Shown piece after piece: positions 30,047 to 49,972 of a DNA stretch of 64,000 bases; position 1 is the first letter of the stretch; each line of letters starts with the position of its first letter. The position numbers and the translations under genes were made by a program. Location of the stretch: the NCBI GenBank assembly GCA_963773285.1, contig CAVZAM010000033.1, positions 77,022 through 141,021 on the forward strand. The letters run 5' to 3'. The notes below the pieces were generated by a model. That model saw only the letters and a list, made by a program, of their open reading frames with translations. It made no database searches and had not been told where the DNA came from. Source of the stretch: an uncultured delta proteobacterium. GTDB taxonomy: Bacteria > Desulfobacterota > Desulfobaccia > Desulfobaccales > 0-14-0-80-60-11.

Positions 30047-30096
30047 GGCGGTTACCTCTTGGACCAGAGTGGCACAAATACCGTAATGCTTTTGTA

Positions 30097-30118: not shown

Positions 30119-30140
30119 GGCTCAGGGCAGTGGGACAATG

Positions 30141-30410: not shown

Positions 30411-30430
30411 CCGCCTTGGACGTTTTTTGT

Positions 30431-30505
30431 TTATCTCTCAAGGGATTGGGGGTGGTGGTGTGGGCGAGGGGGTAAGGACCCGCCGGCCCCTAGTCCCCTC
30501 ACCCA
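30431..30505. repeat. G/C-rich palindromic element (half-element, inverted orientation)
   Basis: AAGGGATTGGGGGTGGTGGTGTGGGCGAGGGGGTAAGGACCCGCCGGCCCCTAGTCCCCTCACCC matches the reverse complement of the HP1 side of 11941-12010. Confidence 0.75.
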
Positions 30506-30513
30506 CTCTCTCT

Positions 30514-31569: not shown

Positions 31570-31595
31570 GATGCCGCCTCACTTTTTCTATAAAT

Positions 31596-31650
31596 TTGGC
31601 TTATTGGGAGGAGGGCCCACTTGGCCCTTAGCCCCTTCCCCCACTAAACT
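31596..31650. repeat. G/C-rich palindromic element (short variant)
   Basis: GGGAGGAGGGCCCACTTGGCCCTTAGCCCCTTCCCCC, in the gap between two tail genes. Confidence 0.65.
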
Positions 31651-31658
31651 TCTATGAC

Positions 31659-35786: not shown

Positions 35787-35790
35787 CAGT

Positions 35791-37377
35791 CTAATCCTCC
35801 CCCAGGTAAGCCCTGATCTTGATCATGCCAAAGTCCACCCACAGGTCATATAAACAGCGCTGCAAGACCTCACGGAGGGCCTGGCTGGCGGAGATATTCT
35901 CGAAGCAGGCCCCCACGACGTACTCCGGCGTCAGGCTCTTGGCCAGGTTGAATGACTCCTGGTCCACTGCCTCGCTTAACCCCACTGCCGCCAAGATATC
36001 CACCATGATGTCTACCGGGTGGGTGATGCCGTCTTTTACCACCCGGGCGCTTACCTGGGCGGTCTGGCCGGTTACCAGAACGTCGCCGGTTTCAAGGTTG
36101 GCGCTCACACCCTCAAAAACCTCCTCGTCATTTAGATAAATGGCGGTGATGGCCTCGAAGGGCGCGCCGGCCAGGCTGTAAGTGTAGATTGGCGCCTGGG
36201 CCGTGAAGGTGCAGACGTCACCGGCCGCCAGATCAGTGCCGATGCCCGGCTGCCAGTACACTGACAACCCCTCCGAGAGGGTCACCGGGTTGTCGGCCCC
36301 GCCGCAGATCAGCCCGGTCTTTTCCCAACTCTGGCCGCTGTTGATGGACCACCTGAACGTAGCCGAACCCACCTCCCCGGTAGCCTCGATTTGCAGGTAA
36401 TAATTAGTAACCACATCCCCGCGGTAATCTCCGAGAACCAGCAGACTGGCGCTGCCGCTGCCGCTTTTGGCCGGAGAACCCACCACCGCTGGCGTGAACT
36501 GCATCAGCTCGCCCCCGGTCCGGTAAAAGCCATGCATAAAAGGGTGACGCATCCCATCCGGGGTGGGGGCGCCCAGGACCTGGTTCAGGCGATAGGTGAT
36601 CCAGTCCTGGGTCGCAAGTTTCACCTGGTGACGCTCCTGCCAGCCGTCCGCCATGTTATCGAGGCCGGTCACCGCTCCCTGGTAGACCAGCAGCCAGTCC
36701 GCCTGGCCGTCGGCCAGCTCGAAGCCGTGATACAGGGCCAGGAGTTTTTCCTCCCAGGGCAGGCCCAGCACCGTAAAGTTATCCCCGCCCGGCAGCCACT
36801 GGGCCTGCCGGTTGTCCAGGCTTAAAGTGTGGCTGCCGCTTTTGAGCCCGCTGAAGTCCCGGGCCAGGTCCACCTGCACCGCCCCGGGGCTCAGCAGCTC
36901 GCTCTCCGGGATGCTCATCCGGCCCGCCAGGTTAAGCCCGGAGATGTAAGCCGGATAGGTGCCGCTGCCCGAGCCCGCCTGGAATTCCACCCTCACCTGA
37001 AAATAAGGCCAAAGGGCGTATTCCACCTGGGAGGCGAGCGGCACGTAGGCCGCCCCGGCCACCTGGTCCAGCGAGGCCGCCCCCCTGAGATAAACCAGGG
37101 CTCCCGGGGAGCCGCTGTGGTCTTCCCAGGAAGGGATCACGTTGTCAATCTGGGCAGAAAAAGTCTGCATCACTGGAGACGTCCAGGACCCGGAGGCAGC
37201 ACCCTGGTCCAACTCAATTCTGCCGGATTCGCCCCCGTAGTGCGCCTGCTCGAACGCCCCGGAGCCAGGCCCCAACCCATAATCCAGGTCAAAGGGGAAA
37301 AGCACTGCCTTGACCCGTGGTCTGGCCCCCCTGAGCCTCGCTTCTTCCTGGAGAAATGCCCCGCTCACCTGTCTCAT
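35791..37377 (-). CDS. phage tail protein (hub/tip-associated, hypothetical)
   Basis: 528-aa ORF between a small tail ORF and the giant tail gene. It shares a ~70-aa module (YYLQIEATGEVGSATFRWSINSGQSW...GDVCTFTA) with 31659..35786. Confidence 0.65.
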   Translation of the reverse strand: MRQVSGAFLQEEARLRGARPRVKAVLFPFDLDYGLGPGSGAFEQAHYGGESGRIELDQGAASGSWTSPVMQTFSAQIDNVIPSWEDHSGSPGALVYLRGAASLDQVAGAAYVPLASQVEYALWPYFQVRVEFQAGSGSGTYPAYISGLNLAGRMSIPESELLSPGAVQVDLARDFSGLKSGSHTLSLDNRQAQWLPGGDNFTVLGLPWEEKLLALYHGFELADGQADWLLVYQGAVTGLDNMADGWQERHQVKLATQDWITYRLNQVLGAPTPDGMRHPFMHGFYRTGGELMQFTPAVVGSPAKSGSGSASLLVLGDYRGDVVTNYYLQIEATGEVGSATFRWSINSGQSWEKTGLICGGADNPVTLSEGLSVYWQPGIGTDLAAGDVCTFTAQAPIYTYSLAGAPFEAITAIYLNDEEVFEGVSANLETGDVLVTGQTAQVSARVVKDGITHPVDIMVDILAAVGLSEAVDQESFNLAKSLTPEYVVGACFENISASQALREVLQRCLYDLWVDFGMIKIRAYLGED

Positions 37378-37409
37378 GGCTTATCCTTAAATTCACAGCC
37401 CATAGCCGG

Positions 37410-37775
37410 CTATACCTCGTCCAGGGTGATGCTCCCGGACCACAGGCCCGGCGACACCTCCCGGAAGTCCAGGTCGTTGGTCCACAGTCCCGTAAAGGTC
37501 TTGGCGCCCCCGTCCTCCCGGTAAAAGTCGATCTCCACCTGGGCCTGCTTGATGGCCGCCAACTGTTCTTTCTGGGCCGTCCCGATATACTTGAAATGCA
37601 GCACCCACTGGGCCTTCATGCTTCGGGTATAACTCCTCAGGGTGCCGTCCAGGGCCCGCTCCCGGTCGCAGTCGTCGGTGCTCAGTTCCTGGTAATCGTA
37701 GGTGAAGTTCACCGGCAGCGTGTAACTCATGGGACCGCTTCCCGGCGGCGTCCATTCCAGCTTGGCGTTGGCCAT
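37410..37775 (-). CDS. small phage tail protein (distal-tail position)
   Basis: 121-aa ORF immediately after the tape-measure-like gene. No recognisable motifs. Confidence 0.5.
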   Translation of the reverse strand: MANAKLEWTPPGSGPMSYTLPVNFTYDYQELSTDDCDRERALDGTLRSYTRSMKAQWVLHFKYIGTAQKEQLAAIKQAQVEIDFYREDGGAKTFTGLWTNDLDFREVSPGLWSGSITLDEV

Positions 37776-37784
37776 ATGCTCTCC

Positions 37785-38567
37785 TTACCAGTTGCGGTTG
37801 GCTTCCCGCTGCAGGGCAGGCAACAGGTGCCGCTGCACCACTTTGCCCCAGTCCATGCCGGCCACACTGGCCGCGTCCAAACTCTGTACCTGGATGGTGA
37901 TGTCGTAGCGGGGGCCGGCGCTTCCCTGGTTCATCTGAAACCGCCCCGAGCGCAGGGCCTCGAAATTATCTTCCCCCAGCTGCACCATGGTGTCCCGGGG
38001 GAGGATGCCTTCCCCGGTCTGGACCTTGATGAGGCGCTCGTCGGCCAGCAGGGTCTCCGGAGACACCGCCAGGCCGCTGTGGGCCTCGAGGATCCCCCCC
38101 TCGTGGAAGATGCCCCCAAACCCCAGGCCGGTGCTTACCCAGGAGGCTATGTCGTTGCCCGAACCGCCCGCGCCCCCTCCCAGGTTCAACTGGGAACCCT
38201 GGCCCGCCAGGTCCAGGGTCTGGGTCAGCTGCTCCCCCAGGGCGCTGACGTCATTGCCGATCCCGGCCAAAGCCTCCTGCCAGCTCTGGGCCAGGGTGTT
38301 GCCGGCATCGATGCCCCTGGAGCTGATCTCGTCAAACATGGCGGCGGCGCCTCCCCCCATCTGCGCCAGGGTTCCCTGCCAGTCCTGCTGAAAGCTGTTC
38401 CAGGACGCGGCCATGCCCTCCATCTCCTGGGACCAGACCGCCTGGCGCTGCTGGCTGTATTCCTGGCTGATGGCGGTCATTTCCTCCTGGTAGGAGCGGT
38501 AATTTGCCAGTTTCTGGTCGTAGCTGGTGCTGCTGGTGGTGCTCTGCTTAGAGGTGCTTGTGGACAT
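37785..38567 (-). CDS. short tape-measure-like protein (260 aa)
   Basis: Gln/Ser/Ala-rich helical N-terminus, a Gly-rich middle, and a C-terminal FHEGGIL....ADERLIKVQTGEGILPRD as seen at tape-measure C-termini. It follows two chaperone-like ORFs. Confidence 0.6.
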   Translation of the reverse strand: MSTSTSKQSTTSSTSYDQKLANYRSYQEEMTAISQEYSQQRQAVWSQEMEGMAASWNSFQQDWQGTLAQMGGGAAAMFDEISSRGIDAGNTLAQSWQEALAGIGNDVSALGEQLTQTLDLAGQGSQLNLGGGAGGSGNDIASWVSTGLGFGGIFHEGGILEAHSGLAVSPETLLADERLIKVQTGEGILPRDTMVQLGEDNFEALRSGRFQMNQGSAGPRYDITIQVQSLDAASVAGMDWGKVVQRHLLPALQREANRNW

Positions 38568-38904
38568 TGCTTCCTCCCTGTGGCTGGGCCAGGGCCTCTT
38601 CCACCAGCCCGAGCAGCAGCCAGGTCTCCAGGCTCAGGTCATTGGCCCGGAAAGGGTAGCCGGCTTTTTTGAGCCGGTGCAGGAACATCAGGTGCCAGGT
38701 CCAGGGTGAGACGGCCTCCGGTCTCAGGTATTCGGCGCAGGTGCCGCAGGCCCAATCCGAGAAGGCGCCGTCTTCAGCCTGGCAGATGCGCCGCTGCTCC
38801 GGCCGGCAAAGACGCCCCCGGGCCAGGGTGTAGAGCTCCTGTAAAACCGTCTGGGTTCCCGGCCATTCCTGGTTACTATGGGGTTCAGCCCGGTTCAGGA
38901 ACAC
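38548..38904 (-). CDS. tail assembly chaperone-like ORF (T-like, -1 frame relative to upstream ORF)
   Basis: 118-aa ORF with a GTG start, overlapping the 3' end of 38895..39278 by 10 nt in the -1 frame. Confidence 0.4.
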   Translation of the reverse strand: MFLNRAEPHSNQEWPGTQTVLQELYTLARGRLCRPEQRRICQAEDGAFSDWACGTCAEYLRPEAVSPWTWHLMFLHRLKKAGYPFRANDLSLETWLLLGLVEEALAQPQGGSNVHKHL

Positions 38905-39278
38905 TCCGCCCCTCCCCGCCCCAGGGCCCGCAGGCCCTCAAACACCTGTTGCCCGAGGTAGGACACCAGGTCCGGGGCGTGTTGGCGAAGATGCTCTTTC
39001 CAGTCTGGATGATGCTCCGGGTCCAGGTCCTGCACTTCTCCCTCCCCCTGGATCAGAAAATCCCCGGCCCCAAACCCCACCAGGATCTCCAGGCCGAACC
39101 TGAGCCGGGTGTCGCTCAGGCGCAGGCGCCGCTCCCCGCTGTCCAGGTGAAACACCGACAGCTGGTAGGCCACCCGCTCCTCGGAGGTCGGCCGGCGGAA
39201 ATAAAAGGTGATTACCGAATCGCTCACCGGGTCCTGGATGGCCATCTTGTGGCGCTCTTCTCCTAATAATCTCGGCAT
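38895..39278 (-). CDS. tail assembly chaperone-like ORF (G-like)
   Basis: 127-aa acidic ORF between the putative major tail gene and the tape measure. An internal ATG (MAIQDPV) is an alternative start. Confidence 0.45.
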   Translation of the reverse strand: MPRLLGEERHKMAIQDPVSDSVITFYFRRPTSEERVAYQLSVFHLDSGERRLRLSDTRLRFGLEILVGFGAGDFLIQGEGEVQDLDPEHHPDWKEHLRQHAPDLVSYLGQQVFEGLRALGRGGAECS

Positions 39279-39291
39279 CTTCCAGTCCTTT

Positions 39292-39321
39292 ATCCCCCCT
39301 TTCTAAAGGGGGCTGGGGGAT
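39292..39321. repeat. palindromic element
   Basis: ATCCCCCCTTTCTAAAGGGGGCTGGGGGAT, in an intergenic gap of the phage cluster. Confidence 0.7.
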
Positions 39322-39366
39322 TTGCTGTAAAGCCTGATGATGGGCCGCTGCATTAACGAAGGACGA

Positions 39367-40659
39367 TTAGGCCGCGTAGCCGCTCACCAGGTTTTGCACC
39401 CGCACGATCACCGAGCCGTAGGTGTCATCCTCCAGCACCGCGAACTCCACGCCCTCGGCGAGCCGTCGCTGCGACACCGACACCGGCGCCGCCGACACCG
39501 CAATGCGGGGGAAGATTATCTCCACCTGGTAGGGAATCCCGGTTTCGAACTCCGGCCCCACCGCTTTCAGGTAGATCCCGAAGTAATCGGTGTCCTTGAG
39601 ACTCTGGGTCATGAGGAAATCCCGGAAGTCCCGGTCCATAGACAGTTTTTGCTCCCGGCCGGTGCGATAGGCCCGGTTGGCGAAATCGCCCCCGCCCGGG
39701 CTGCGCTCCGGCGACAGGTTGTTCTGCAGATTCCACACCAGGCGCCTGATCTCCGCGGCCGGGGTGTAGCCGCCGGTGAAGCCGCTGCCGTTCCAAGCCC
39801 CGCCGATATTCACCGTGAGCTGGCTCACCTTGAGGGGCGGCTCCTCCACCCGGGCCGGGAAGGCCATCCAGCCGCTTTCCCGGGGCACGTAATAAACCTT
39901 GTAGGTCGTGTTGGCCCCGCTGCTCCCCGGCGGCATAATGGTCACCACCCCCGGCGTCCCCCCGGACACCGCCGTGTAACCGACTTCGTCCCAGGCCCCG
40001 GTGGTGGGGTTCAGCACCTTCACCGCCTGCACGTTGGCCAGGTAATCGGCGGCGCTGGCGCCCTCCACACCGTTCGCTGCCAGGGACAGGGCGCTGGCGT
40101 TATAAGGGGCGTTTACTGCCTCCACCAGGGTGTTGTCCGTCACCTTGCCCGTCCCTTTCACCACCCCGTTGACCTTGGCCCAGCCGTCCTTGGCGAACTC
40201 CACCCGCACCTGGTCCACGAAACAGGACGCAAAGCGCCGCTTCATCACCTGGCGCCCGTAGCGCATGGCCGCCGTAAAGGAAGGGTTGGACCGGGCCGCG
40301 TCCACTTCCCCGGACCGGGGCTGCATGACGTGGCGATGGCCGCTGATCCCCAGGGGCGAGCTGGTGACGCTTCCCAGGGCATAGGCCAGCAGGAAAGCGA
40401 AGTGCTGCGGCTGGGCCCGGGAGAAGGCCAGGGTTCCCGCCACCGTCCCCCCCAGGTCGTAAAGCCGGTCCGCTTCTTCCTTGCCGGTAATCTCGTCCCG
40501 GTTGGCCGATTTGAGCGGCCGGTAATTGAGGACCGTGTTCAAATCCACCAGGAAGCTGGTGTCCAGCGCCTGCTCCTGATTGATGGCGCTCTCCTGGTGG
40601 TTGGCTGACACGGCCAGCATGTTGTGGGTGGCCAAAAAATTGCGTATCGACCTGGTCAT
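39367..40659 (-). CDS. putative major tail protein (430 aa)
   Basis: The ATG at 40659 is preceded by GGGAGGA. Its position after the gp36/gp37-like connectors and before the chaperone-like ORFs suggests a tail tube subunit with an inserted domain. There is no direct motif evidence. Confidence 0.45.
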   Translation of the reverse strand: MTRSIRNFLATHNMLAVSANHQESAINQEQALDTSFLVDLNTVLNYRPLKSANRDEITGKEEADRLYDLGGTVAGTLAFSRAQPQHFAFLLAYALGSVTSSPLGISGHRHVMQPRSGEVDAARSNPSFTAAMRYGRQVMKRRFASCFVDQVRVEFAKDGWAKVNGVVKGTGKVTDNTLVEAVNAPYNASALSLAANGVEGASAADYLANVQAVKVLNPTTGAWDEVGYTAVSGGTPGVVTIMPPGSSGANTTYKVYYVPRESGWMAFPARVEEPPLKVSQLTVNIGGAWNGSGFTGGYTPAAEIRRLVWNLQNNLSPERSPGGGDFANRAYRTGREQKLSMDRDFRDFLMTQSLKDTDYFGIYLKAVGPEFETGIPYQVEIIFPRIAVSAAPVSVSQRRLAEGVEFAVLEDDTYGSVIVRVQNLVSGYAA

Positions 40660-40690
40660 CAGTATTCCTCCCAAAGCTGCATCGCCACTC

Positions 40691-41131
40691 TTACCGGTCC
40701 TGGATCGCCGTGGTGCGGTAATGGGCTCTATATACCGTGTATTCGCGGTCGGCCAGGAGCGGCTCTTCCCGGACCAGGGCAAAAGGCAGCACGCCCAGCC
40801 CCAGGTCCTTTTGCCACAGGGCGTCCTGCACCCCCAGCAGGAGGTCGTAAGCCCCGCCGGTGTCGCGCCGGCCGGCCTCCTCACCCCTGAGGCTGCGCAC
40901 CACCACCAGCACCTGAAAATCCAGGGTCAGGTCGAAGGAAGATACCCCCACCTGCTGACAGTTGCTGCCGGAGAGCATCACCAGCACTGCCGGCATCCGC
41001 CAGGTGGCCTGGGGGAGGTCCGTCTTCCAATTCCCCTGGTAGCTCTGTATGGTTCCGGCCTGCTCCCCCAGCCGGGCCTGCAGGGCCGCCACCACCGCGT
41101 CCTCCACCGTGGTCCAGGACAGATCGCTCAT
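40691..41131 (-). CDS. Mu gp37-like (DUF1834-type) head-tail connector protein
   Basis: 146-aa ORF: MSDLSWTTVEDAVVAALQARLG...MPAVLVMLSG...FDLTLDFQVLVVVRSLRGE. The pattern and position match Mu-like gp37 homologues (recalled similarity). Confidence 0.55.
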   Translation of the reverse strand: MSDLSWTTVEDAVVAALQARLGEQAGTIQSYQGNWKTDLPQATWRMPAVLVMLSGSNCQQVGVSSFDLTLDFQVLVVVRSLRGEEAGRRDTGGAYDLLLGVQDALWQKDLGLGVLPFALVREEPLLADREYTVYRAHYRTTAIQDR

Positions 41132-41566
41132 AGCCTTACCAGTTTCCCTGGGTATCCCGGGTAAAGATCCGGGTGGCGCTGCTGAACTCCACTCCCGCCT
41201 GGATCTGGGCCGCCGGCCTGGCCGGCATCGCCGCTCTGCTCCACCACCGCCCCCTCCGCGGCCACCAGCTTAAGGAAACTCACCGCCGCCTCGTACTTCT
41301 GCTGACGTACCGCCGGGACCACGCTGCGCCGGGAATAAAGATGGTAGAGGGCCATGTCCATGGCTAGCCCCATGACCTGATCCGGCACCGGGTTGAGAGG
41401 CAGCGTGTGCCGCATCCCCAGGTAAGAGTCGATTTCCGCTGTCCGCCCGCTGGATGGCCTCTGCCACCACCTGGCTGTCCGGAGTGTCCCCGGAGTCCGC
41501 CGTCAGTTCGGCCAACTCCTTTACGGGAATCATGGTGAGAAGATCGTTTTGGGTGCAGTAAGCCAT
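41128..41566 (-). CDS. Mu gp36-like (DUF1320-type) head-tail protein (frame disrupted at about 41425-41432 and again near 41200-41250)
   Basis: MAYCTQNDLLTMIPVKELAELTAD...AIQRAD continues in another frame as AEIDSYLGMRHTLPLNPVP...ALYHLYSRR. A third frame gives the C-terminus VEFSSATRIFTRDTQGNW. Confidence 0.6.
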
Positions 41567-41686
41567 ATCGTGTGTCCTTTGCTGCAGGGAACTGTCCGGT
41601 TATGTCAGTCCGCTGCTGAAGTCCTGGTGAACTCCGCCTGCGTCATCTGCTTCTGCAGGGTGCTGCGTTCGGCCATTTTTGTCTGG

Positions 41687-42487
41687 TTATTCAGCCCCCG
41701 TCACCAGATCAACGGTCCAGAAGCTGTTGGCCAGGCCGCCGGTGGTCAGGTAGTCGAAGGGCAGGTAGAAGTGCCCCCGCTCCGGGTAGGTGGGCGGCTG
41801 GCAGCCCCAGTCCGTGCCCCAGCTGTTCTGGCAGATGAATACCTTTTGGTGTACGTCGTGGCCGTGCACCAGGATGCCGTGGCCCCCCAGGAACTTCTCC
41901 CGGAGCCCCGGCAGGGGGATAACCCCGGTCTGGGCGCAGGCGTCGGACTTGAAACTCTCGAACACCGAGATGCCGCAGACGATGTTGCGGCCGCTGGACA
42001 GGCAAATGAGGATGTCGGCCAGATCCTGGTCCACCGCGTGGTATTGGGCGATTTTGTGACCCTGGGCGTCCTGGTACGCGGCCTCGCTGGGCTTGGTCTT
42101 GAAGTTGTCCAGGGAGTATGGCCACAGGGCCTCGGCGCAGACCCCGTCCCGGGCCATAAGCTTCATGGCCGTCCTGATGTTGGCCCCGGAGTCCACGGTG
42201 ATGTCCCCCTCCACCTCGCGGTAGTGGTAATAGGCGAACTGGGGCGCCAGCCGGGGGCGCTGCTTGGGCGGGTTGTTCATGATCTCGGCTGCTTCCATGG
42301 CCTCGGTGGCGGCGTGGAAAACGCAGCTCCCTTCCTGGAGCTGGTTTTTCACCCGTGGCGTGATGTTGTACACCACCGGTTTGATGTCCGTACCCGGGGC
42401 GTATACCGCCGGGGCGAACTTGTATTCCTCGTCCCGGGGGTCGTAGGGGTCGGCGGACCAGCCGAAGATCTGTTCAGGGATGGGCAT
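41687..42487 (-). CDS. papain-like cysteine peptidase (family C1)
   Basis: NQLQEGSCVFHAATEA (Gln oxyanion + catalytic Cys), GGHGILVHGHD (catalytic His) and CQNSWGTDWG (Asn-Ser-Trp). The ATG at 42487 lies 2 nt after the upstream stop. Confidence 0.85.
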   Translation of the reverse strand: MPIPEQIFGWSADPYDPRDEEYKFAPAVYAPGTDIKPVVYNITPRVKNQLQEGSCVFHAATEAMEAAEIMNNPPKQRPRLAPQFAYYHYREVEGDITVDSGANIRTAMKLMARDGVCAEALWPYSLDNFKTKPSEAAYQDAQGHKIAQYHAVDQDLADILICLSSGRNIVCGISVFESFKSDACAQTGVIPLPGLREKFLGGHGILVHGHDVHQKVFICQNSWGTDWGCQPPTYPERGHFYLPFDYLTTGGLANSFWTVDLVTGAE

Positions 42488-42489
42488 GT

Positions 42490-42870
42490 CTATTCCTCCT
42501 GGCCGGCCGCCCACTTGCGCAGGTCGCTCAGGTCCGGCGCGGCAATGGCGGTGGCCTTGGCGCGCGCCTGGGAGGGCGTGCTCCCCGCTGCGTCCACTGC
42601 ATTGATGGCGTTCTGGAGTTCAGTCACGGCCACGCAGATGCTCTGCTGTATATTATGGAAGGTGCTCTCCGCCGCGGCCAGCTTGGCCAGAAGCGTGGTG
42701 TCCTGCACCAGGGCCAGGGCCGCCGCCGCAAAGGCCTCGCCCTGCTTGGCCTCGGCCTTCTGGCTGTCCGTGGGGTTGCACAATAGGGCCCCCGCCTTCT
42801 GTAACATGCTGCAGCTGCTGCCCACCAAAGTCAGGCAAATGATTATGAGAACAAGAATCGACTTCTTCAT
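42490..42870 (-). CDS. secreted/lipoprotein-like Ala-rich helical protein (o-spanin-like position)
   Basis: Signal peptide MKKSILVLIIICLTLVGSSC with a non-canonical lipobox-like Cys. The mature part is an Ala-rich coiled-coil-like sequence. Confidence 0.55.
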   Translation of the reverse strand: MKKSILVLIIICLTLVGSSCSMLQKAGALLCNPTDSQKAEAKQGEAFAAAALALVQDTTLLAKLAAAESTFHNIQQSICVAVTELQNAINAVDAAGSTPSQARAKATAIAAPDLSDLRKWAAGQEE

Positions 42871-42900
42871 GGGGTTCTCCCGTTTTTGGGTTATTTCAGC

Positions 42901-43164
42901 TTATCTCACGACCCGGCCTTCGGAGCTGTGGGCGTGGGCGTTTACCGCCCCCCAGAGGCCTTCCTTCTCTTTCTGGAACTCGACCCGCCCCAGGAATCGC
43001 TCCGACAGGCCCGCCTGACATTGGAAAGTCGCTTCGTGAAGCTGATCGAGCTTCTTTTCCATGCGCACCAGCATCCGCCAGAGCAGAAAACCGCTCAGGC
43101 TGGCGAAAATTCCCAGAAGGGCCACCACCGCCCCGATGTGTTCTGCCAGGTCCTTGTAATGCAT
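42901..43164 (-). CDS. single-TM coiled-coil protein (i-spanin/antiholin-like position; paralog of 30141..30410)
   Basis: The ATG at 43164 gives MHYKDLAEHIGAVVALLGIFASLSGFLLWRMLVRMEKKLDQL...GLWGAVNAHAH. Confidence 0.55.
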   Translation of the reverse strand: MHYKDLAEHIGAVVALLGIFASLSGFLLWRMLVRMEKKLDQLHEATFQCQAGLSERFLGRVEFQKEKEGLWGAVNAHAHSSEGRVVR

Positions 43165-43165
43165 G

Positions 43166-43333
43166 TCATTCGCTGGTCTTGGATACTCCAGACCGGAGTG
43201 CCGCCAGACCCAGGGAGCCGCCCAGGCTGAGGAGCAGCTCGAACTGATTCTGGTCCATCCAGCCCATGGCCCGGGCAAAAGCTCCCAGGCCGATGACCGC
43301 GGCCACGATGTAGGTTTTCTTGCCGTTCAGCAT
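43166..43333 (-). CDS. holin-like small membrane protein (55 aa, below ORF-track cutoff)
   Basis: My own translation is MLNGKKTYIVAAVIGLGAFARAMGWMDQNQFELLLSLGGSLGLAALRSGVSKTSE. It has two hydrophobic segments and a charged C-terminus. The stop lies 1 nt before the next ATG. Confidence 0.5.
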   Translation of the reverse strand: MLNGKKTYIVAAVIGLGAFARAMGWMDQNQFELLLSLGGSLGLAALRSGVSKTSE

Positions 43334-43360
43334 CTTTTCCTCCCTGTCCTCGCTCTGCGC

Positions 43361-43702
43361 CTAAAAGAAATAAGTCGCTGTCAGGGTGCCGTCCGCATCT
43401 CCGGCCTTGATGGCCCGAAACTGATTGATGGCCTGGGCCCCGATCAGGAGAAAGGTGTCCCCGCTGACCATGTAGTGCCCGCTGGTACTGGTGGGCGGGC
43501 TCACCCCGTCAAGGCGGAAGCGGATGTCCCCGCCCTCCAGGGAAAGCAGGGCCGCCTGGGCTGTCATGCCGTTGTAAGTGCCGCTCGTCGGTTTGATTTT
43601 GCCCCGGGTGAAGTACGTGGAACTGTCGCTCACCGCGATAGCCTCGAAGTTTCCCGGGACACTGTTGTTGGTTTGTATGACGAGACCGCCGAACCAACCC
43701 AT
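43361..43702 (-). CDS. small phage structural/hypothetical protein
   Basis: 113-aa beta-rich ORF downstream of the capsid gene. No recognisable motifs. Confidence 0.45.
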   Translation of the reverse strand: MGWFGGLVIQTNNSVPGNFEAIAVSDSSTYFTRGKIKPTSGTYNGMTAQAALLSLEGGDIRFRLDGVSPPTSTSGHYMVSGDTFLLIGAQAINQFRAIKAGDADGTLTATYFF

Positions 43703-43759
43703 GGTTGACTCCTTGTGTGGTAAGGGGCGCTCTGGTGACGCCCCCCCTCTGCTTCGAAA

Positions 43760-44656
43760 TTAAACCAGTTCGGGCACCACCAGGAGGTCTGCCGAACCCA
43801 GCCAGATATTGGACTTGGAGCCCCCCACGCTGTCGGATCCGATGACAAATTGCGCGTTGAGGATCTCCCTGGCCTTGCCTTCCAGGGCCGGCGGCACAAT
43901 CAGCAGGCTCGGCTTGATCCCCAGGGAGTCGCCGCCCGTGTTGGTCAGGGACATCATGGCGGCCCGGGCCGAAGAGTAAGTGGTGGAGTTCAGCTCCTGG
44001 GTGGAGCAATACGCCATCTGCCAGAGGCCGTAAGCCGCCGCTCCCCGGTAGTCCACGCCGTAGCGGAACTTCTTGTGGAGGAACACGTGTTCGTTATCGG
44101 GCCGGTCCATGCGCACCAGCTGAGGTCCGCGCCGCAACTGGAAGATAAACGGCTTGATGGCCCGGGTCTTGTCGATGATGTACCAGGGGGTGTTGCCGCC
44201 GTTGTCGAAATTGGACGCCGTCTTGCTGCCTACCGGGTGGTTCGTGGCGAAGAAATTCTGCCCGTCGTAACACAGCGACGCGGTGCCGTTCTTCAACAGG
44301 TTGGCGATCAGTCTCTCCGGATGCCGTTTGGCTTCCTCGGCCATGGCCGCAATGATGGGGTTGTAAAGCCCCAGCTGCTCGTCTTCCAGGTCGTTGCGCT
44401 CGATCTCGATGGTGGCTTCCCAGTCCTTGGTCGCCACCTGGAAGGTCTTGGGTTCCAGAGAGTTGATCTGCCGGTCCCCGATCCATTCCTGTACCGTGGG
44501 GAAGTCCAGAAGAAACTTGTAGTCCATGATCCGGGTGGTGGCCGGCACCGTCATGGCTACCTGTTCGTGCCAGGTGTCCGTTTTGTGAAAAGCGTTGTTG
44601 AAGACCGCGCTGAAGGCCGTGTAGACGTTGGCCAGGGCATTCGCATTGATGATCAT
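43760..44656 (-). CDS. major capsid protein, Mu gpT-like
   Basis: The ATG at 44656 is preceded by AAGGAGG. MIINANALANVYTAFSAVFNNAF...YKFLLDFPTVQEWIGDRQI...IERNDLEDEQLGLYNP...YDGQNFFATNHP fits the gpT major head subunit family. Confidence 0.85.
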   Translation of the reverse strand: MIINANALANVYTAFSAVFNNAFHKTDTWHEQVAMTVPATTRIMDYKFLLDFPTVQEWIGDRQINSLEPKTFQVATKDWEATIEIERNDLEDEQLGLYNPIIAAMAEEAKRHPERLIANLLKNGTASLCYDGQNFFATNHPVGSKTASNFDNGGNTPWYIIDKTRAIKPFIFQLRRGPQLVRMDRPDNEHVFLHKKFRYGVDYRGAAAYGLWQMAYCSTQELNSTTYSSARAAMMSLTNTGGDSLGIKPSLLIVPPALEGKAREILNAQFVIGSDSVGGSKSNIWLGSADLLVVPELV

Positions 44657-44673
44657 TCGTGCGTACCTCCTTG

Positions 44674-45081
44674 TTATGCAGTGATGTCGACCCAACCCTG
44701 GGTGTCAGACACATACTTCACCAGCACCCCGATGCGGATGTCGTTGGTGGGGCCGCTGGCGTCGTCCATGGTGTGGTCGTCCACGATATACATGGCTGTG
44801 CCCACCATGGCCTGGGTGATGCTGGCCGCGTCAAACTGGAAAGCCCCGCTTCTTCTCAGACGGACTGTCAAAGCCCCGTTGGCGGCGCCGGTATTGTCCG
44901 CCTGCTCCAGTGCCACCCCTGCGAATTTCAGCCCCGCGGTATCCGCCGCGGGCACCGCATAGCCCGTGCTGTTGGCACACACCAGGCTGCCGGCATAGAT
45001 TTTGGTGTTGGCTGCCACCGGAAAATCCAGCTCGATGCCGTCCCGGTATGGCGTGGCCCGATCCTTGGTCAAAGCTGCCAT
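44674..45081 (-). CDS. capsid decoration/cement protein (DUF2190-like)
   Basis: 135-aa ORF between the protease/scaffold and capsid genes. It has a beta-rich pattern with AGSLV...GYAVPA...GVALE. Confidence 0.55.
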   Translation of the reverse strand: MAALTKDRATPYRDGIELDFPVAANTKIYAGSLVCANSTGYAVPAADTAGLKFAGVALEQADNTGAANGALTVRLRRSGAFQFDAASITQAMVGTAMYIVDDHTMDDASGPTNDIRIGVLVKYVSDTQGWVDITA

Positions 45082-45098
45082 CTTGTCTCACCTCCGCC

Positions 45099-46223
45099 TT
45101 ATTTAGCCTGGGCCATTGCGGCCTTGGCCTGTGAATATGCTTCCGGGGTTAGATTCATGGTCCGGCACACAGCCAGCTCCTCCGGGCTCAAACCCTGATT
45201 CTCCCGGTATTTCTCCTCCCCCAGGTTCAGCCGTTCGCCCACGGGGACTACCCGAGGGGCCTTTGCCACGTAACTCTTGAAGCTCTCCGGGTCCTGGCGG
45301 CAATAGGACAGGGCCCAGTCTTTTTGGGCCGGACTGATCTTGCCGGCCAGCATGGCCTCTTCCACCACCCGGGCCGTGCCTTCTTCTGCGACCTGAGCCT
45401 TGAGCACCGCCAATTCCTCTTCCAGGGCCTGGATACCTTGCCCTGAAGCCTGCAGGGCTGCTAAGCCGCCTTTCAGTTCTGCGGCGGTGCATTCCTCCGG
45501 CAAGCCCATTTCCTGGGCCAGGTCCCGAAAAAGCTCCACCGACCGCTTCCACAACTCCCCATTAGGGGCCTCAGGCACCAGGCCCAACCGCACCTTGAGC
45601 TCTGAGGCCAGCTCGACTGCCTCGGTACAGGCCTCCAGGACGGAGCTTTCCCGGGCCGGAGATCCTTCCGGGACCAGGGCGGCCTGCTCCCCCGGGAGAT
45701 TCTCCGCGGTCAGCGCCTCCCCGCCCCATTTGGCCACCAGGGGGCTCAAACCCTGAATGGCCGGGACGTTGGTCAGGGCCACGTTCATGAGCTCCTGGGG
45801 CCGCCGGCTCTCCGGGTCGATGCGCAGCACCGGGGAAAAATAGCGGTACTCCCGCTGCTTCAGGTACTTCCCCGCCTTGTCGGTCCATTCCACCTGGGCC
45901 CAGAGGCCGTCCTCCCGGGCCTCCAGGTCCTTGATCCAGCCCGCCGCCGGGGCTTGCCCGCCCTTTAACGACTGGTGCTCGTAGTCGATGACCAGGTCCG
46001 TCCCCCGGGCCCCAAAGGCCCTCACCAGAGCCGTCAGGGCCTCCGGGTCCACCTCGAAGGGGGGGCGGCCATCCACCAGGTTCACCTGTCCCAGGGGCAA
46101 AAGCCTCAACCACCCGGGCAGCTCCGCCATCGCCAATGTCAACCGCACTTCTTTTTCCATGCTGTTTTTTCCTGTCATTCCCGTCTTCCCGCCTCCCGAA
46201 GTGAGAATTTTTCCCTCTGCCAA
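45099..46223 (-). CDS. Mu gpI-like head maturation protease/scaffold
   Basis: LPLGQVNLVDGRPPFEVD, VIDYEHQS, AAGWIKDLEAREDGLWAQVEWT and YRYFSPV, with a helical scaffold-like C-terminus. The true start may be the internal ATG near 46160. Confidence 0.8.
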   Translation of the reverse strand: MAEGKILTSGGGKTGMTGKNSMEKEVRLTLAMAELPGWLRLLPLGQVNLVDGRPPFEVDPEALTALVRAFGARGTDLVIDYEHQSLKGGQAPAAGWIKDLEAREDGLWAQVEWTDKAGKYLKQREYRYFSPVLRIDPESRRPQELMNVALTNVPAIQGLSPLVAKWGGEALTAENLPGEQAALVPEGSPARESSVLEACTEAVELASELKVRLGLVPEAPNGELWKRSVELFRDLAQEMGLPEECTAAELKGGLAALQASGQGIQALEEELAVLKAQVAEEGTARVVEEAMLAGKISPAQKDWALSYCRQDPESFKSYVAKAPRVVPVGERLNLGEEKYRENQGLSPEELAVCRTMNLTPEAYSQAKAAMAQAK

Positions 46224-46235
46224 AAGTTCATTCCT

Positions 46236-46290
46236 TGTTATTCCCTCTCCCTCCAGCGGCAGGAGAGGGTAGGGGTGAGGGGGGATTAAA
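46236..46290. repeat. G/C-rich palindromic element (inverted orientation)
   Basis: CCCTCTCCCTCCAGCGGCAGGAGAGGGTAGGGGTGAGGGGGG. Its reverse complement matches the 8766-8800 type (CCCCCTCACCC..ACCCTCTCC-loop-GGAGAGGG). Confidence 0.75.
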
Positions 46291-46307
46291 AAAGCGCCAG
46301 CCCTCGT

Positions 46308-47564
46308 TCAACCCTTCTTCGCCGGCCCCACCACGGCCTGGCCTTCCTTGGCCAGGGGTATCCCGAAGCGCTCCGCCACGTGCTCCAGGCTGAGCGGCAC
46401 CCCCAGGTTCACCAGGTTGCGGTAAACCTCCGACAAGGTCAGGAGGTCATCGCTTTCCTCGAACCGGAAGCGGAACCAGGGCACCGGTTTGTCCCAGCCG
46501 AAATTGAAGCCCACCAGGGGACGCAGCAGTTGCTCCCGCAGGGTTTGCCCCAAGCACTGGGCGTCCGCCACCGTCAGGTCGCTGCGCACCTGGGAGTGCA
46601 CCTTGGCCGCCCCGTAAGTGCCCGTGCTCCCTGAAGTGTCCGTGGTCAGGGTCTGCCCCAGGATGGCCTTGGACATCTCCCGGTTGCAAAAATCCGCCAG
46701 CACCTGAAAGGGGTTTGAGCTTCCGGATAACCGGTTGGAGGTCTCTACGAACTCGATCTCCGTGTTCTTGCTGATAATCCCCGCCGCGTCGGCCCCCAGG
46801 TTCCTCACCGCCTGGAGCAGGGCCTCCCGGTCTGCCGGCGTCGAGGCCGGGTCATACTTTCCCAGGCGCAGCGGCATGCCGAAGACCTCGTTGAAAGCCA
46901 CCCAATCCTTCAGGCTGTAATTCTTGAGGAGGTACATGTAGCCCACCACCCGGAGCATTCCCGCCCGGCTGTCGTAGCCGCTCTTGGCCTTGTAGCGGTG
47001 ATAGATGACCTTCCATGGCGGAAAAGGCACCCCTTGCCAGGGCCCGTCCGCCGTGACCAGGCGCGGGTTCAGGTCATCCACGAACGTGATCTTCTTCTGG
47101 GGCACCCACTTGAGCTCCTCCACCCGGGCTAGCTTTCGGTCCACCCCCCAGATAATCTCCGTGAGGGCAAAGCCCTTGCCGATGGCATCCAGCAAATCGA
47201 GGCAGGCGTTCTCCAGATCCGGTATCCCGAAAACCACCTCTCCCACCGCCTCGGCAATCTGCCTGTCCTCCGGCGTGTCGGCGTAGGGCAGCACCTCGTA
47301 ATCCAGGCTCAACACCGACTGCTTGCGGGTCTGGAGGAGTGAAGCAAGATGGGCGTCTTTCTCTTCCATCTCCTCGAAGAGCTCCATCTGCGTGCGCACC
47401 GAGCCCTGATCCGCCTCCTGGAAAATGGCCCCCAAACCCCCGGGGGTCAATCCGACGCTGGGATAAGAGCTCCAGCGATCCTGAAGACTTACCGCCGCTA
47501 TCTCCCGAATTTCGGGCTTTACCTGCGGCGTGAACCATCTGCCGAAAAAATCCTTCAATCCCAT
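46308..47564 (-). CDS. portal protein, Mu gp29-like (DUF935 type)
   Basis: 418-aa ORF with QMELFEEMEEKDAHLASLLQTRKQSVL and a downstream conserved core. It lies between TerL and the protease. Confidence 0.85.
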   Translation of the reverse strand: MGLKDFFGRWFTPQVKPEIREIAAVSLQDRWSSYPSVGLTPGGLGAIFQEADQGSVRTQMELFEEMEEKDAHLASLLQTRKQSVLSLDYEVLPYADTPEDRQIAEAVGEVVFGIPDLENACLDLLDAIGKGFALTEIIWGVDRKLARVEELKWVPQKKITFVDDLNPRLVTADGPWQGVPFPPWKVIYHRYKAKSGYDSRAGMLRVVGYMYLLKNYSLKDWVAFNEVFGMPLRLGKYDPASTPADREALLQAVRNLGADAAGIISKNTEIEFVETSNRLSGSSNPFQVLADFCNREMSKAILGQTLTTDTSGSTGTYGAAKVHSQVRSDLTVADAQCLGQTLREQLLRPLVGFNFGWDKPVPWFRFRFEESDDLLTLSEVYRNLVNLGVPLSLEHVAERFGIPLAKEGQAVVGPAKKG

Positions 47565-47595
47565 GTGATCCTCATCCGGCCCGAAAGTTCATCGG

Positions 47596-47655
47596 GAATC
47601 CTTAAAGTCCCCCTCTCCGCCCGCTTGCGGGGGGACAGGGTTGGGGTAAGGGGGA
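47596..47655. repeat. G/C-rich palindromic element (inverted orientation)
   Basis: CCCCTCTCCGCCCGCTTGCGGGGGGACAGGGTTGGGGTAAGGGGGAG, in the portal-terminase gap. Confidence 0.7.
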
Positions 47656-47663
47656 GCCAGCGG

Positions 47664-49193
47664 TTAATACGCTCCCCGCCCCCCAAAGGCCCGCGTCTCC
47701 ACGGACTCATAAGTCGCCGTCTCTTTCCCTCCCCCCAAAATGGTCTGGGCCAGCTGCACGGCGCCGGCCAGGGCGTCGGGGCCGTCATCATGGAGGTTCC
47801 GGGAAGGGAAGTAGAGTAACTGCTCGATGAGCTTCTCCTGGTCGGAATGCCCGCGGATAAAGCGGATTCTCCCTCGTTCAAACAGCGGTGACAGGACGGC
47901 CACCCTGGTCTCTTTGGCGATGCGGTGGGTGACTCCCTTCACCGGCAAAAACACCTTCAGCTCCCGCCCCATCCGGTCAAATTCTTTAATCAACAGGCGC
48001 TGGAAAAGGTTGTCCTCCACCCCCAGCAGATGGTATGGCTGTTCCCGGTGCCGGTTAAACACCGCCCTCAGCGTCTGCTCCAGGGTGGTCTTCTGGATAA
48101 ACGCATCCAGCACGTAAAAGACCGATTCATCCTGGCAATACCCCACCGAGACCACCGCCTTGTAATCGGCGCTGCTCCCGGACTCCAGCGACGGGTCGAA
48201 GAAACCCGCCACGATCAGGTTCTTGTCCTTCAGGCTGTCCGGGTGGTAATAGTGCAGCCACTGCTCCTGGAATAATCCTTTTATGGGAGTGGGCTCATTC
48301 ATCTTCTCCCGGTTGAAGGCCACCGTGCCCATGAGCTGTCTTTGCAGGTGCAGCCGCTCCACGGGGTGCCGCACTTCCCATAGGGAGGTGCCATCCTCCC
48401 TGAAGGCCTTGAAAATCCGCCGCCTGAAATTGCAGTAAGGCTCATCTTGGCTCGTCAGCATGATGTGCAGGGCGCTGCGGTGCAAAAGAATCGTGCCGAT
48501 GATCATGAGGGTGCCGTTGGCGTCCAGGGACGGGTATACTGCGGAATTAACCCAGTCCAAAATCTGGCCCACGATCTCGGGGTTGCGCACGTTGACGTCA
48601 TTTTCCATGTCGTCCAGGATGATCAGGTCAGGCCGGTGCTGCCGGTGCTTCAGGCCCCGGAGGCGCTGCCCCCGGCCCCGGGCCTTCACCCGGACGCTGT
48701 TGGTCGTGATGAAGTCGTCCACCGGTTTGTTCGCCCGCACCAGCTCCCCGAAATCCTGCTGCAGCCGCTCGTTGTACAGCATTTCCATGTACAGGTAGCC
48801 GGTGAGGTCGCTGGCCAGGTCTTCGGTGTCGCTGCCGATGATGATGAAATGCCGCTTCCCGAAGCAGATCTGGTGCAGCACGTAGCCGAAGGAACAGACG
48901 GTGCTCTTAGCAAATTCCCGGGGCGCCGCCACCACCGCCGGGGTCACCACTTTGCCCCGTTCTTCCATGAAGCGGACCAGCTCATAATGAAAAGGCGCCG
49001 GCGCATGAGAAAAATAGTGGGGCAGGTAGGTCCGGCAGAAGTACAGGGGGTCGGCCTCCGCCTTCTTGATGCGCTGCTCCCGCTTGTCCTCGGTGTCCTC
49101 CCAGAAAGGGGTCACGTCCATGGACAGCCGCATCAGGATCCGGTCCGCCTTCTGCCGAAATGCGCTTTTGGTCAGCTTCTTGTTAAGATTCAT
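47664..49193 (-). CDS. terminase large subunit
   Basis: Walker A-like AAPREFAKST, Walker B LIILDDMEN and a C-terminal nuclease-type acidic region. 509 aa. Confidence 0.85.
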   Translation of the reverse strand: MNLNKKLTKSAFRQKADRILMRLSMDVTPFWEDTEDKREQRIKKAEADPLYFCRTYLPHYFSHAPAPFHYELVRFMEERGKVVTPAVVAAPREFAKSTVCSFGYVLHQICFGKRHFIIIGSDTEDLASDLTGYLYMEMLYNERLQQDFGELVRANKPVDDFITTNSVRVKARGRGQRLRGLKHRQHRPDLIILDDMENDVNVRNPEIVGQILDWVNSAVYPSLDANGTLMIIGTILLHRSALHIMLTSQDEPYCNFRRRIFKAFREDGTSLWEVRHPVERLHLQRQLMGTVAFNREKMNEPTPIKGLFQEQWLHYYHPDSLKDKNLIVAGFFDPSLESGSSADYKAVVSVGYCQDESVFYVLDAFIQKTTLEQTLRAVFNRHREQPYHLLGVEDNLFQRLLIKEFDRMGRELKVFLPVKGVTHRIAKETRVAVLSPLFERGRIRFIRGHSDQEKLIEQLLYFPSRNLHDDGPDALAGAVQLAQTILGGGKETATYESVETRAFGGRGAY

Positions 49194-49244
49194 CCCCTCG
49201 CCTTTTCCCTTTTGCCTTTTTATTTTTTACTTTTGCCTTTTCCC

Positions 49245-49724
49245 TTACCCTCTGCCTTCGTCGTCATCTTCGAGAACGCGGAAAAACTCCTGCATCCACT
49301 GCGTAAACAGTTTGATTTCCTCGGGTTCCTTCACCCAGCTGCGCACAAACTCGCTGAACCGGTCCATCACCTCCAGGGCCGCGGCCCTGATGTCCCAGCC
49401 GCTGTTGGTCAACCGGTCGATTAACGTGACAATCTTGGTCAGCTCATCCAGTTCCTGGGGCTTTACGTCGCCCTTGGCCAGAACCTTCCCCGTTTTTTCC
49501 CGGAGCACTCCCCGTAAGGCCTCCCCCAACCAGCGGGGTGACACCAGGGCCTGCCGCCGTTTTTCTTCCCAATGGCCTTCCTTATGCCAACGTTTGAGAG
49601 TGGGAAGGGTTACCGGGAACAATTCTTTAATTTCCTCCAGTTTCTTGCCGGCCAGGTAAAGGGATTGCACCTCTTCAAAGTAAAACTTCCGCTTGTTCCG
49701 GTCGGTTGTATAGCGCTGCGTCAT
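49245..49724 (-). CDS. terminase small subunit-like protein (Mu gp27/DUF1804-like)
   Basis: N-terminal HTH-like LYLAGKKLEEIKELFPVTLPTLKRWHKEGHWEEKRR. It is positioned immediately upstream of TerL. Confidence 0.55.
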   Translation of the reverse strand: MTQRYTTDRNKRKFYFEEVQSLYLAGKKLEEIKELFPVTLPTLKRWHKEGHWEEKRRQALVSPRWLGEALRGVLREKTGKVLAKGDVKPQELDELTKIVTLIDRLTNSGWDIRAAALEVMDRFSEFVRSWVKEPEEIKLFTQWMQEFFRVLEDDDEGRG

Positions 49725-49786
49725 TCAGTAGCCCGTATTTCAAGAATCCTTGAGGGTTATCGCCGGCCTTGGGTCTCAGATTACCC

Positions 49787-49972
49787 TCAGGTCGCCAGGC
49801 AATCCATTTCCAGCATCTGCGCGAACACCGCGCTTTCAAAAATCCTCACCGGCCCGCCCGCCAGTTTGACCCCCCTGAGTTTCCCCTCCCAGAACCACCG
49901 GTATACCGAGGAACGGGATATTCCCAGCCGCCCGGCCACATCACTGGGTCTCAGCAGTTTCTCTGATGCCAT
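49787..49972 (-). CDS. excisionase/AlpA-family HTH DNA-binding protein
   Basis: LLRPSDVAGRLGISRSSVYRWFWEGKLRGVKLAGGPVRI, the MerR-like excisionase-family HTH pattern. Confidence 0.7.
   Translation of the reverse strand: MASEKLLRPSDVAGRLGISRSSVYRWFWEGKLRGVKLAGGPVRIFESAVFAQMLEMDCLAT

Follow-up and report, generated by a model that had tools for sequence, protein, structure and literature searches.

What does a papain-family (C1) cysteine peptidase do in a block of genes that resembles a phage lysis cassette? The question is raised by four minus-strand open reading frames (ORFs; 41687–43333) in a 64,000-nucleotide stretch of DNA from an uncultured delta proteobacterium (contig CAVZAM010000033.1, positions 77,022 to 141,021; hereafter the window), where they lie within a phage-like head, tail, and packaging cluster. 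A preliminary description of the locus had likened their order to holin, i-spanin, o-spanin, and endolysin, with the peptidase standing in for a known endolysin type. The comparative analysis presented here favors, at a probability of about 0.4, a composite late lysis-type cassette built of two modules in a cargo hot-spot of the element, in which the protease would act as an accessory lysis factor. The first module, p55 and p87, would be the element's own holin-like pair, moved from a site at the tail end of the cluster; the second, a lipoprotein and a C1A peptidase, would be a mobile two-gene unit. Judged from gene neighborhoods, the peptidase is probably an envelope-acting factor with a protein substrate and not a murein hydrolase.

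Organization and Coding Evidence of the Cassette

The four genes are co-directional and separated by gaps of 1, 30, and 2 nt. The first, p55 (43166..43333, minus strand), is a core gene of the element; its product, a small holin-like protein of the membrane, is 55 aa long and belongs to the "GKKTYI" family. Next comes its constant partner p87 (42901..43164, minus strand), an 87-aa protein with an N-terminal transmembrane (TM) segment and a His/Cys-rich C terminus, which starts at an ATG within a longer TTG-initiated ORF. The third gene (42490..42870, minus strand) encodes the partner of the protease, a lipoprotein of 126 aa assigned to the "LCNPT" family, and the fourth (41687..42487, minus strand) encodes the 266-aa xylellain-type C1A cysteine peptidase, which lacks a signal peptide. 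Good Shine-Dalgarno sites precede p55, the lipoprotein, and the peptidase, the last of which starts 2 nt past the lipoprotein stop codon behind an AGGAGG ribosome-binding site.

The G+C content at third codon positions (GC3) of all four ORFs is 0.72–0.88 in a genome of 62% GC, as is typical of coding sequence. The ratio of non-synonymous to synonymous substitution rates (dN/dS) is 0.14 for p55 and 0.15 for p87, compared with 0.15 for the gpT capsid protein, so that both small proteins are as constrained as the capsid; values for the lipoprotein (0.26–0.51) and the peptidase (0.07–0.24) indicate that the former evolves about twice as fast as the latter. Coordinates, GC3, and dN/dS thus all confirm the four packed minus-strand ORFs first described, as well as their placement between the capsid side and the connector, where Pfam identifies the flanking genes as Mu-like gpT and gp36/gp37. 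Between gpT and gp36, the coding strand showed no sign of a σ70-type promoter or an intrinsic terminator, and the four genes are therefore read as part of a late operon.

The Peptidase Is a Xylellain-type C1A Enzyme

The 266-aa protein matches Pfam Peptidase_C1 (PF00112) with E = 4.9e-11 and 43.6 bits, above the cut-off of 20.7, and matches xylellain (PDB code 3OIS) with E = 5.6e-34 in phmmer. An AlphaFold2 model (mean predicted local distance difference test score, pLDDT, of 83.4) was placed on 3OIS by Foldseek with a template modeling score of 0.85 and a probability of 1.00, cathepsins being the next hits. Gln49, Cys55, His203, Asn221, and Trp223 do not vary among 24 homologs, in agreement with the complete papain set noticed at the outset. 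The protein also carries an N-terminal extension of ∼40 residues, over which the pLDDT falls to 40–66. Hydropathy analysis revealed neither a signal peptide nor a signal-arrest-release (SAR) segment. By its residues and modeled fold, the peptidase is a genuine C1A enzyme of the xylellain type and is predicted to be catalytically complete.

Homologs of this enzyme occur in varied settings. The broad xylellain-type family was found on 281 viral contigs, lone homologs reside in jumbo phages and chromosomes among unrelated neighbors, and proteins of the virion with LamG-type domains are the commonest annotated neighbors of the homologs in IMG/VR. A 66%-identical homolog, P0003, lies directly after Gam/GemA in a Mu-like phage; lysis genes in Mu-like phages usually begin at this position. 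Three homologs are unusual in their architecture. In one viral contig (L054:4738-6438), the C1 domain is fused to collagen-like Gly-X-Y repeats and a C-terminal fiber-like domain, which suggests a protease borne on the virion fiber of that phage. In Alicyclobacillus phage MMB025 (PV686781.1; L006:3785-6046), a 753-aa annotated endolysin combines Peptidase_C1 with an Ig-like domain, an Rv2525c glycoside-hydrolase-like (GH25-like) domain, and PG_binding_1, and is the only cell-wall-directed C1 fusion seen in this analysis. In a third homolog, likewise viral (L024:6555-8558), ∼400 aa of intein-like sequence are inserted exactly where the catalytic Cys lies (GSC|...|CTANS); as judged by eye, the insertion has features of a homing endonuclease.

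The Lipoprotein Is Linked to the Protease

The ORF preceding the peptidase encodes a signal peptide. In alignments, Cys20 of the protein falls on the lipobox Cys of its relatives, which have the canonical L-[AS]-G-C where the window copy reads the non-canonical VGSSC; the earlier classification of the protein as lipoprotein-like is upheld. The mature protein is Ala-rich and 106 aa long, with the conserved motifs LCNPT, G-x-CV, and a C-terminal P.L..LR, which in the form P-x-L-x-x-L-[RK] is kept in most members of the family. Its AlphaFold2 model is helical and of low confidence (pLDDT 54). A profile search of 1.84 billion representatives recovered 47 clusters of this lipoprotein.

Among close relatives of the element, the slot after p87 is mostly occupied by an unrelated lipoprotein of 151–155 aa (lipo155), without an enzyme, and the combination of 126-aa lipoprotein and C1 peptidase is confined to the window, locus L005, and a few other relatives. 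At a further locus (L020), a C1 peptidase of 40% identity precedes a secreted protein of 132 aa that is unrelated. Neither lipo155 nor the 132-aa protein could be accepted as a homolog of the LCNPT lipoprotein, the similarity found by hhalign being confined to the signal peptide. The pair recurs on a different phage-like contig (L001/L002) as an 83%-identical peptidase and a 56%-identical lipoprotein, where three small membrane proteins, including a p55 homolog, precede it; this contig also encodes a 3933-aa SLT/LPD1 protein. Moreover, eight distant sister elements encode a homologous 114-aa lipoprotein between portal and gpI. These shorter proteins share the lipobox and the C-S/N-P-T and G-I-C-V motifs, lack the P.L..LR motif, and overlap by 4 nt the gene for a C1 peptidase that is 28% identical to that of the window and has intact catalytic residues. 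As the lipoprotein precedes a C1 peptidase at three positions, in several cases without p87, it pairs with the protease. On this comparative evidence the lipoprotein is the partner of the protease and not of p87, and the two form a mobile, tightly linked pair.

Further members of the lipoprotein family occupy cassettes of other composition, bringing the total to ∼9 independent contexts, most of them on short contigs. In L295 (787-2872) the order is PLD-like protein, Phage_lysozyme, 50-aa protein with two TM segments (2TM), lipoprotein, Peptidase_C14 (caspase-like), and small TM protein. L292/293 encode a 2TM protein, the lipoprotein, and a protein with the caspase His/Cys motifs YSGHG...DSCHAG. 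In L296/297, phage contigs of 45–53 kb, a TM protein, a TIGR02594-like protein, and a 2TM protein precede the lipoprotein, which is followed by two small ORFs and a 268-aa protein, possibly papain-like; the L296 copy of the latter reached an hhalign probability of only 20% against papain-like enzymes and had no match in the PDB. L291 has an NlpC/P60-like protein (recognized by motif only), small TM proteins, and the lipoprotein at the contig end, and L290 has a TM protein, the lipoprotein, and a 107-aa protein. A conventional wall hydrolase is thus already present in the cassettes of L295 and L296/297, and the L292/293 contigs are too short to judge. The broad lipoprotein alignments were too divergent to serve as a query against viral contigs; a narrower set returned 2 loci.

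By gene order, then, the gene downstream of the lipoprotein appears typically to encode a cysteine protease, which belongs to one or the other of two unrelated clans (C1 or C14). Because proteases of unrelated clans fill the same slot beside canonical endolysins, a protein substrate is favored, and these cassette patterns suggest that the pair is an accessory to holin and endolysin at the usual spanin site. The caspase-like enzyme in the lysis cassette of L295 appears to be undescribed, and a literature search found nothing on C1 or C14 proteases in lysis cassettes.

The same distribution bears on the possibility that lipoprotein and protease are a conflict or moron pair, either an effector with its periplasmic immunity protein or inhibitor or a cell-death or defense module activated by the protease, residing in a permissive slot. 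Patchy occurrence would fit such a role, as would the differing alleles of the slot (lipo155 alone, the 126-aa lipoprotein with C1, or the 40%-identical C1 with the 132-aa protein), the two insertion sites in the head module, the faster evolution of the lipoprotein relative to the protease, and the lone homologs among unrelated neighbors in jumbo phages and chromosomes. Pairs of a protease and a lipoprotein inhibitor on mobile elements also have precedent (PMC2873492). However, no promoter or terminator of its own was detected for the pair, which is embedded in the late operon, and on independent contigs it lies repeatedly beside holin-like genes and endolysins. The protease is, moreover, unexported and the putative immunity protein exported, such that the two would meet only after permeabilization of the membrane. 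We hold a conflict or moron role to be unlikely.

p55 and p87 Form a Holin-like Core Pair

The hydropathy of p55 reaches 1.66–1.97 at residues 9–25, which is of TM grade, and is followed by a second segment of marginal grade; of the two TM segments originally proposed, one is thus well founded. The C terminus is polar and charged (...RSGVSKTSE). Homologs sharing the motif L-x-G-K-K-T-Y-I form 46 clusters and are present in nearly all sister elements and at 71 IMG/VR loci (L144-L213). No Pfam, PHROG, or NCBIfam family matches p55, and searches of PHROGs with 10 distant relatives gave two marginal matches (E 0.03–0.04), neither of them a holin.

Within two positions of p55 homologs at ∼50 distinct IMG/VR loci there are 126 genes, many of them terminases and at least 11 of them peptidoglycan hydrolases, the latter drawn from eight Pfam families (M15_3, CHAP, lysozyme, GH108, Hydrolase_2, M15_4, M23, and C92). 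Three such enzymes lie directly upstream of the p55 homolog: CHAP in L203, where a TM protein and a lipoprotein follow, Hydrolase_2 in L147, and M15_4 in L200. As a small membrane protein that recurs beside interchangeable endolysins, p55 looks holin-like by its genomic company, and its relatives would constitute an unannotated family that is widespread in viral contigs. The preliminary reading of the locus as lysis-like is sustained to this extent, through the neighborhood and the occurrence of p55 beside endolysins in unrelated contigs; for the block as a whole it holds by association.

As described previously, p87 is an N-terminal-TM protein, with one strong segment at residues 10–30 by hydropathy. 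An Arg/Lys cluster just past this segment (WRMLVRMEKK) suggests that the C-terminal domain, which is conserved, His/Cys-rich, and ends in GRVVR, would be cytoplasmic. Like p55, with which it is always adjacent there, the protein occurs in nearly all sister elements; it is confined to this element family, with only 2 matches in IMG/VR.

The usual position of p55 and p87 is after the last tail gene, and in the clade of the window they are placed between p113 and gp36 instead. At the tail-end site, a 148-aa TIGR02594/CHAP protein comes next in 9 loci, roughly one-third, and no enzyme is present in ∼16. This protein scores just over threshold for CHAP and 101 bits for TIGR02594, a family annotated as a lysis endopeptidase beside a holin in a P2-like phage, which also includes peptidoglycan-degrading effectors of type VI secretion systems. 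In the window, the ancestral site after the last tail gene holds a paralog of p87, p89 (30141..30410, minus strand), which aligns with the p87 family through the common motif ...EHEVEHHGLWEALHHHEHDF.GR..R and has the same His-rich C terminus and a different TM segment. It is followed by p77 (29870..30103, minus strand), a small zinc-ribbon-like protein with two CxxC motifs. p89 and p77 are conserved together in the clade of the window, where they adjoin HdrA.

Is the Peptidase an Endolysin and Are Its Neighbors Spanins?

The most direct alternative is that the C1A peptidase is itself the endolysin, having replaced a CHAP-type enzyme, with p55 releasing it and p87 and the lipoprotein acting as spanins. 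Pfam and PHROG scans covering the ORFs of the element detected neither a muramidase nor an amidase nor a CHAP domain, and tblastn with nine probes, a small set, found no endolysin in the window, so that the reported lack of a canonical endolysin in the cluster stands. This lack speaks for an endolysin role, and there is further support in the sister loci in which p55 and p87 are followed by TIGR02594/CHAP, a protein that shares the clan CA fold. The holin-like p55 is the third gene upstream of the peptidase within one operon, the enzyme is devoid of a signal peptide as holin-dependent endolysins are, P0003 occupies the position just after Gam/GemA in its Mu-like phage, and the MMB025 endolysin joins Peptidase_C1 to GH25-like and PG_binding_1 domains.

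The absence of an endolysin here nevertheless says little, because most sister elements also lack an enzyme in cis (∼16 loci with p55 and p87 alone), making absence the norm. The loci retrieved for comparing CHAP with C1 within one element stop short of the second site; L136 has neither enzyme in cis. Within the protein, Peptidase_C1 alone was detected, and no family with demonstrated murein hydrolase activity. Cleavage of peptidoglycan is not known for any C1-family enzyme. A review of the clan lists only NlpC/P60, CHAP, and amidases as its cell-wall enzymes. PMC5146660, considered as a C1 precedent, was rejected, its enzyme being a CHAP protein. Furthermore, a caspase-like C14 enzyme fills the same slot, and the module sits beside a canonical endolysin in L295 (lysozyme), in L296/297 (TIGR02594-like), and probably in L291, so that across relatives the protease is not the sole wall enzyme. 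The broad viral family (281 contigs) shows no lysis enrichment, and fusions such as the fiber fusion of L054 point to other modes of delivery. The proposal that a C1 peptidase replaces the endolysin is weakened by the C14 enzyme in the same slot and by the cassettes that contain wall enzymes, and we regard it as unlikely.

The spanin assignment fares no better. The lipoprotein does possess the signal peptide and aligned Cys20 expected of an o-spanin. However, p87 occurs mostly without it: at the tail-end site p87 has no lipoprotein beside it, in the clade of the window p87 is followed by lipo155, and the LCNPT lipoprotein travels with the protease. An Ala-rich, helical mature protein of 106 aa is also unlike o-spanins. 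The i-spanin/o-spanin order was accordingly abandoned on comparative grounds.

A Model for Protease Function

In the two-module model, the peptidase would be a cytoplasmic product, probably a zymogen occluded by its N terminus as xylellain is, and would gain access to the envelope only once the holin opens the inner membrane. Its substrate would be a protein, candidates being the outer-membrane lipoprotein partner, for example at its C-terminal Leu-Arg, or the protein tethers between outer membrane and wall, and the peptidase would thereby help the outer-membrane, last step of lysis. A Leu-Arg sequence suits both papain-type (P2 Leu) and metacaspase-type (P1 Arg) enzymes, and the conserved motif of the lipoprotein is a candidate cleavage site. 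The peptidase would not cut peptidoglycan. Where murein cleavage is needed it would be performed by a conventional enzyme, the TIGR02594/CHAP protein in sister elements and here presumably one encoded elsewhere in the genome.

Several observations weigh against this model. Lysis genes are not enriched around the broad xylellain-type family on its 281 viral contigs, where small TM proteins account for 14.7% of the near and 11.5% of the far genes and the PHROG neighbors are heterogeneous; a general lysis association of the whole viral family was consequently rejected. In the eight distant elements the lipoprotein-protease pair lies ∼19 kb from p55/p87. The lipoprotein family provides ∼9 independent contexts only, mostly on short contigs, and its low-confidence model (pLDDT 54) is too poor for a fold search. 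Finally, the case for cleavage at Leu-Arg is the conservation of the motif, which the 114-aa variants lack.

A bolder form of the model, which we consider quite unlikely, holds that the lipoprotein and a C1 or C14 protease make up an unrecognized two-component, protease-dependent device for outer-membrane disruption in Gram-negative hosts that replaces spanins. The protease, once periplasmic upon triggering of the holin, would clip the lipoprotein, for example at Leu-Arg, to yield a membrane-active helical hairpin, or would sever the protein tethers between outer membrane and wall. Such a device would be carried by phages and by a putative new GTA family of Desulfobaccales.

The Host Element Resembles a Gene Transfer Agent

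The cassette belongs to a cluster of ∼20 kb (29870..49972, minus strand) dedicated to head, tail, and packaging functions. Its first part encodes a helix-turn-helix (HTH) protein, the small and large terminase subunits, a Mu-type portal, the gpI protease/scaffold, a cement protein, and the gpT capsid. The middle consists of p113, the four cassette genes (p55, p87, lipoprotein, and peptidase), gp36, and gp37, and is followed by a 430-aa tail protein, two small proteins, and a 260-aa tape measure. The tail end comprises proteins of 121, 528, and 351 aa and a 1375-aa Laminin_G tail protein. p113 (43361..43702, minus strand), a small conserved protein that separates gpT from the cargo slot, occurs in most sister elements with or without the cassette and gives a weak Ig-like Pfam match; it is treated as context outside the cassette. 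At the left edge are two small divergent HTH_17/AlpA-like proteins (49787-49972, minus strand, and 50380-50682, plus strand), which are kept in sister elements and are possible regulators of the cluster. Housekeeping genes border the element, with HdrA at one end and a response regulator, FtsH, FolP, and CdaA at the opposite end.

When one genome was scanned for each species, the cluster turned up in 49 species-level genomes, nearly all labeled Desulfobaccales, Desulfobacca, or a related Thermodesulfobacteriota/deltaproteobacterial lineage, with core proteins 62–85% identical. FtsH flanks the element wherever the locus reaches the left end (about a dozen cases). Pfam and PHROG annotation revealed no integrase, replication gene, or lysogeny module in the element. 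Because one conserved locus is maintained across the clade and holds only head, tail, and packaging genes, the element looks, from its gene content, like a domesticated phage element resembling a gene transfer agent (GTA) and is a candidate for an undescribed GTA family; no paper on this element or on a Desulfobacca GTA was found in the literature.

From the comparison of sister loci, the gpT/gp36 and portal/gpI junctions are the cargo slots of the element family. The location of the cassette, previously called atypical, is indeed inside the head-connector junction, and is best seen as a derived state that arose by relocation into a cargo hot-spot. A gene inside the structural module, at either junction, might also encode a virion-borne enzyme, packaged or carried on the tail, that digests envelope proteins of the recipient at DNA entry; the analogy would be to g14, the cell-wall peptidase of the Rhodobacter capsulatus GTA (RcGTA). 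Such an enzyme would fit a tail module with no recognizable wall-degrading enzyme, the collagen-like and fiber-like fusion of L054, and the frequency of LamG-type virion proteins beside the IMG/VR homologs. However, its constant partner is predicted to be a lipoprotein exported by Sec/Lol, and a protein so exported cannot belong to the particle. The enzyme is missing from most sister elements and must then be dispensable for particle function, and homologous modules reside in lysis cassettes. A virion-borne enzyme is consequently highly improbable.

Three irregularities were noted in the sequences. The gp36-like connector (41128-41566) has two single-base insertions relative to the 98%-identical element of L005, in which it is an intact ORF of 142 aa, and these reflect either pseudogenization or assembly indels. 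In an HdrA-like ORF (∼26165-26700), the C-terminal ∼170 residues read as nonsense rich in Arg, Gly, and Pro, and an ORF of high GC3 overlaps them in a different frame, which suggests a frameshift and, taken with gp36, hints at indel errors of the assembly. The 1375-aa tail protein of the window (31659-35786) corresponds in L005 (16713-20801) to two ORFs of 289 aa and at least 1060 aa, a sign of indels or decay in these assemblies.

Significance and Comparison with Known Systems

Phage lysis in Gram-negative hosts is taught as a sequence of holin, endolysin, and spanin, and few alternatives to spanins are known. If the two-module model is correct, a lipoprotein and cysteine protease pair at the spanin position would be a candidate for a new outer-envelope step of lysis and would give phage-acquired xylellain-type C1A peptidases their first biological role; thiol chemistry would fit strictly anaerobic hosts. 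Should the protease be a simple moron, the finding would reduce to a known type of horizontal acquisition. The p55 family would be useful for the annotation of lysis cassettes, and the element would add a candidate GTA family conserved across an order of relatives of sulfate reducers.

The host element is most readily compared with RcGTA, which likewise encodes only head, tail, and packaging proteins at a conserved locus, without integrase or replication genes. In both, the tape measure is short and the distal tail protein large. The lysis genes of RcGTA are unlinked to its structural cluster. The two differ in that the element has a portal, protease, and capsid of Mu type and belongs to a different phylum.

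The peptidase has the same Gln, Cys, His, and Asn residues and the same fold as xylellain (Xylella fastidiosa XF0156, 3OIS), and in both an N-terminal extension takes the place of the classical propeptide. Horizontal transfer of xylellain-type enzymes into Myoviridae, Siphoviridae, and giant viruses has already been reported, without a function (PMC10380794); the specific linkage to a lipoprotein and the holin-like neighbors seen here are a context undescribed in that work.

A papain-fold protease encoded with a small partner is also found in the staphopain-staphostatin pair and in the C10 Bfp-Bfi proteins of Bacteroides fragilis; among such pairs, some partners are lipoproteins and some pairs are located on prophages or conjugative elements (PMC2873492). 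These systems combine a secreted protease with a β-barrel inhibitor, whereas the protease described here is unexported and its unrelated partner is predicted to be helical.

With cassettes of the λ S-R-Rz/Rz1 type the locus shares a small holin-like protein, an unexported enzyme, a lipoprotein, tight packing, and late co-transcription. It differs from them in that a known murein hydrolase domain is missing, the lipoprotein is not paired with the TM protein across relatives, and the enzyme belongs to a true protease family and can be replaced by a C14 enzyme. About 15% of phages are reported to lack spanins and to need alternatives (bioRxiv 10.1101/515445, PMC5707550). The LysB esterase of mycobacteriophages and the disruptin of phage phiKT (gp28) are likewise extra cassette genes for the last envelope layer, which they handle once the wall has been cut. 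LysB is an esterase and disruptin a cationic peptide, and the part proposed here, by inference from gene context, for a lipoprotein together with a cysteine protease would be one as yet undescribed.

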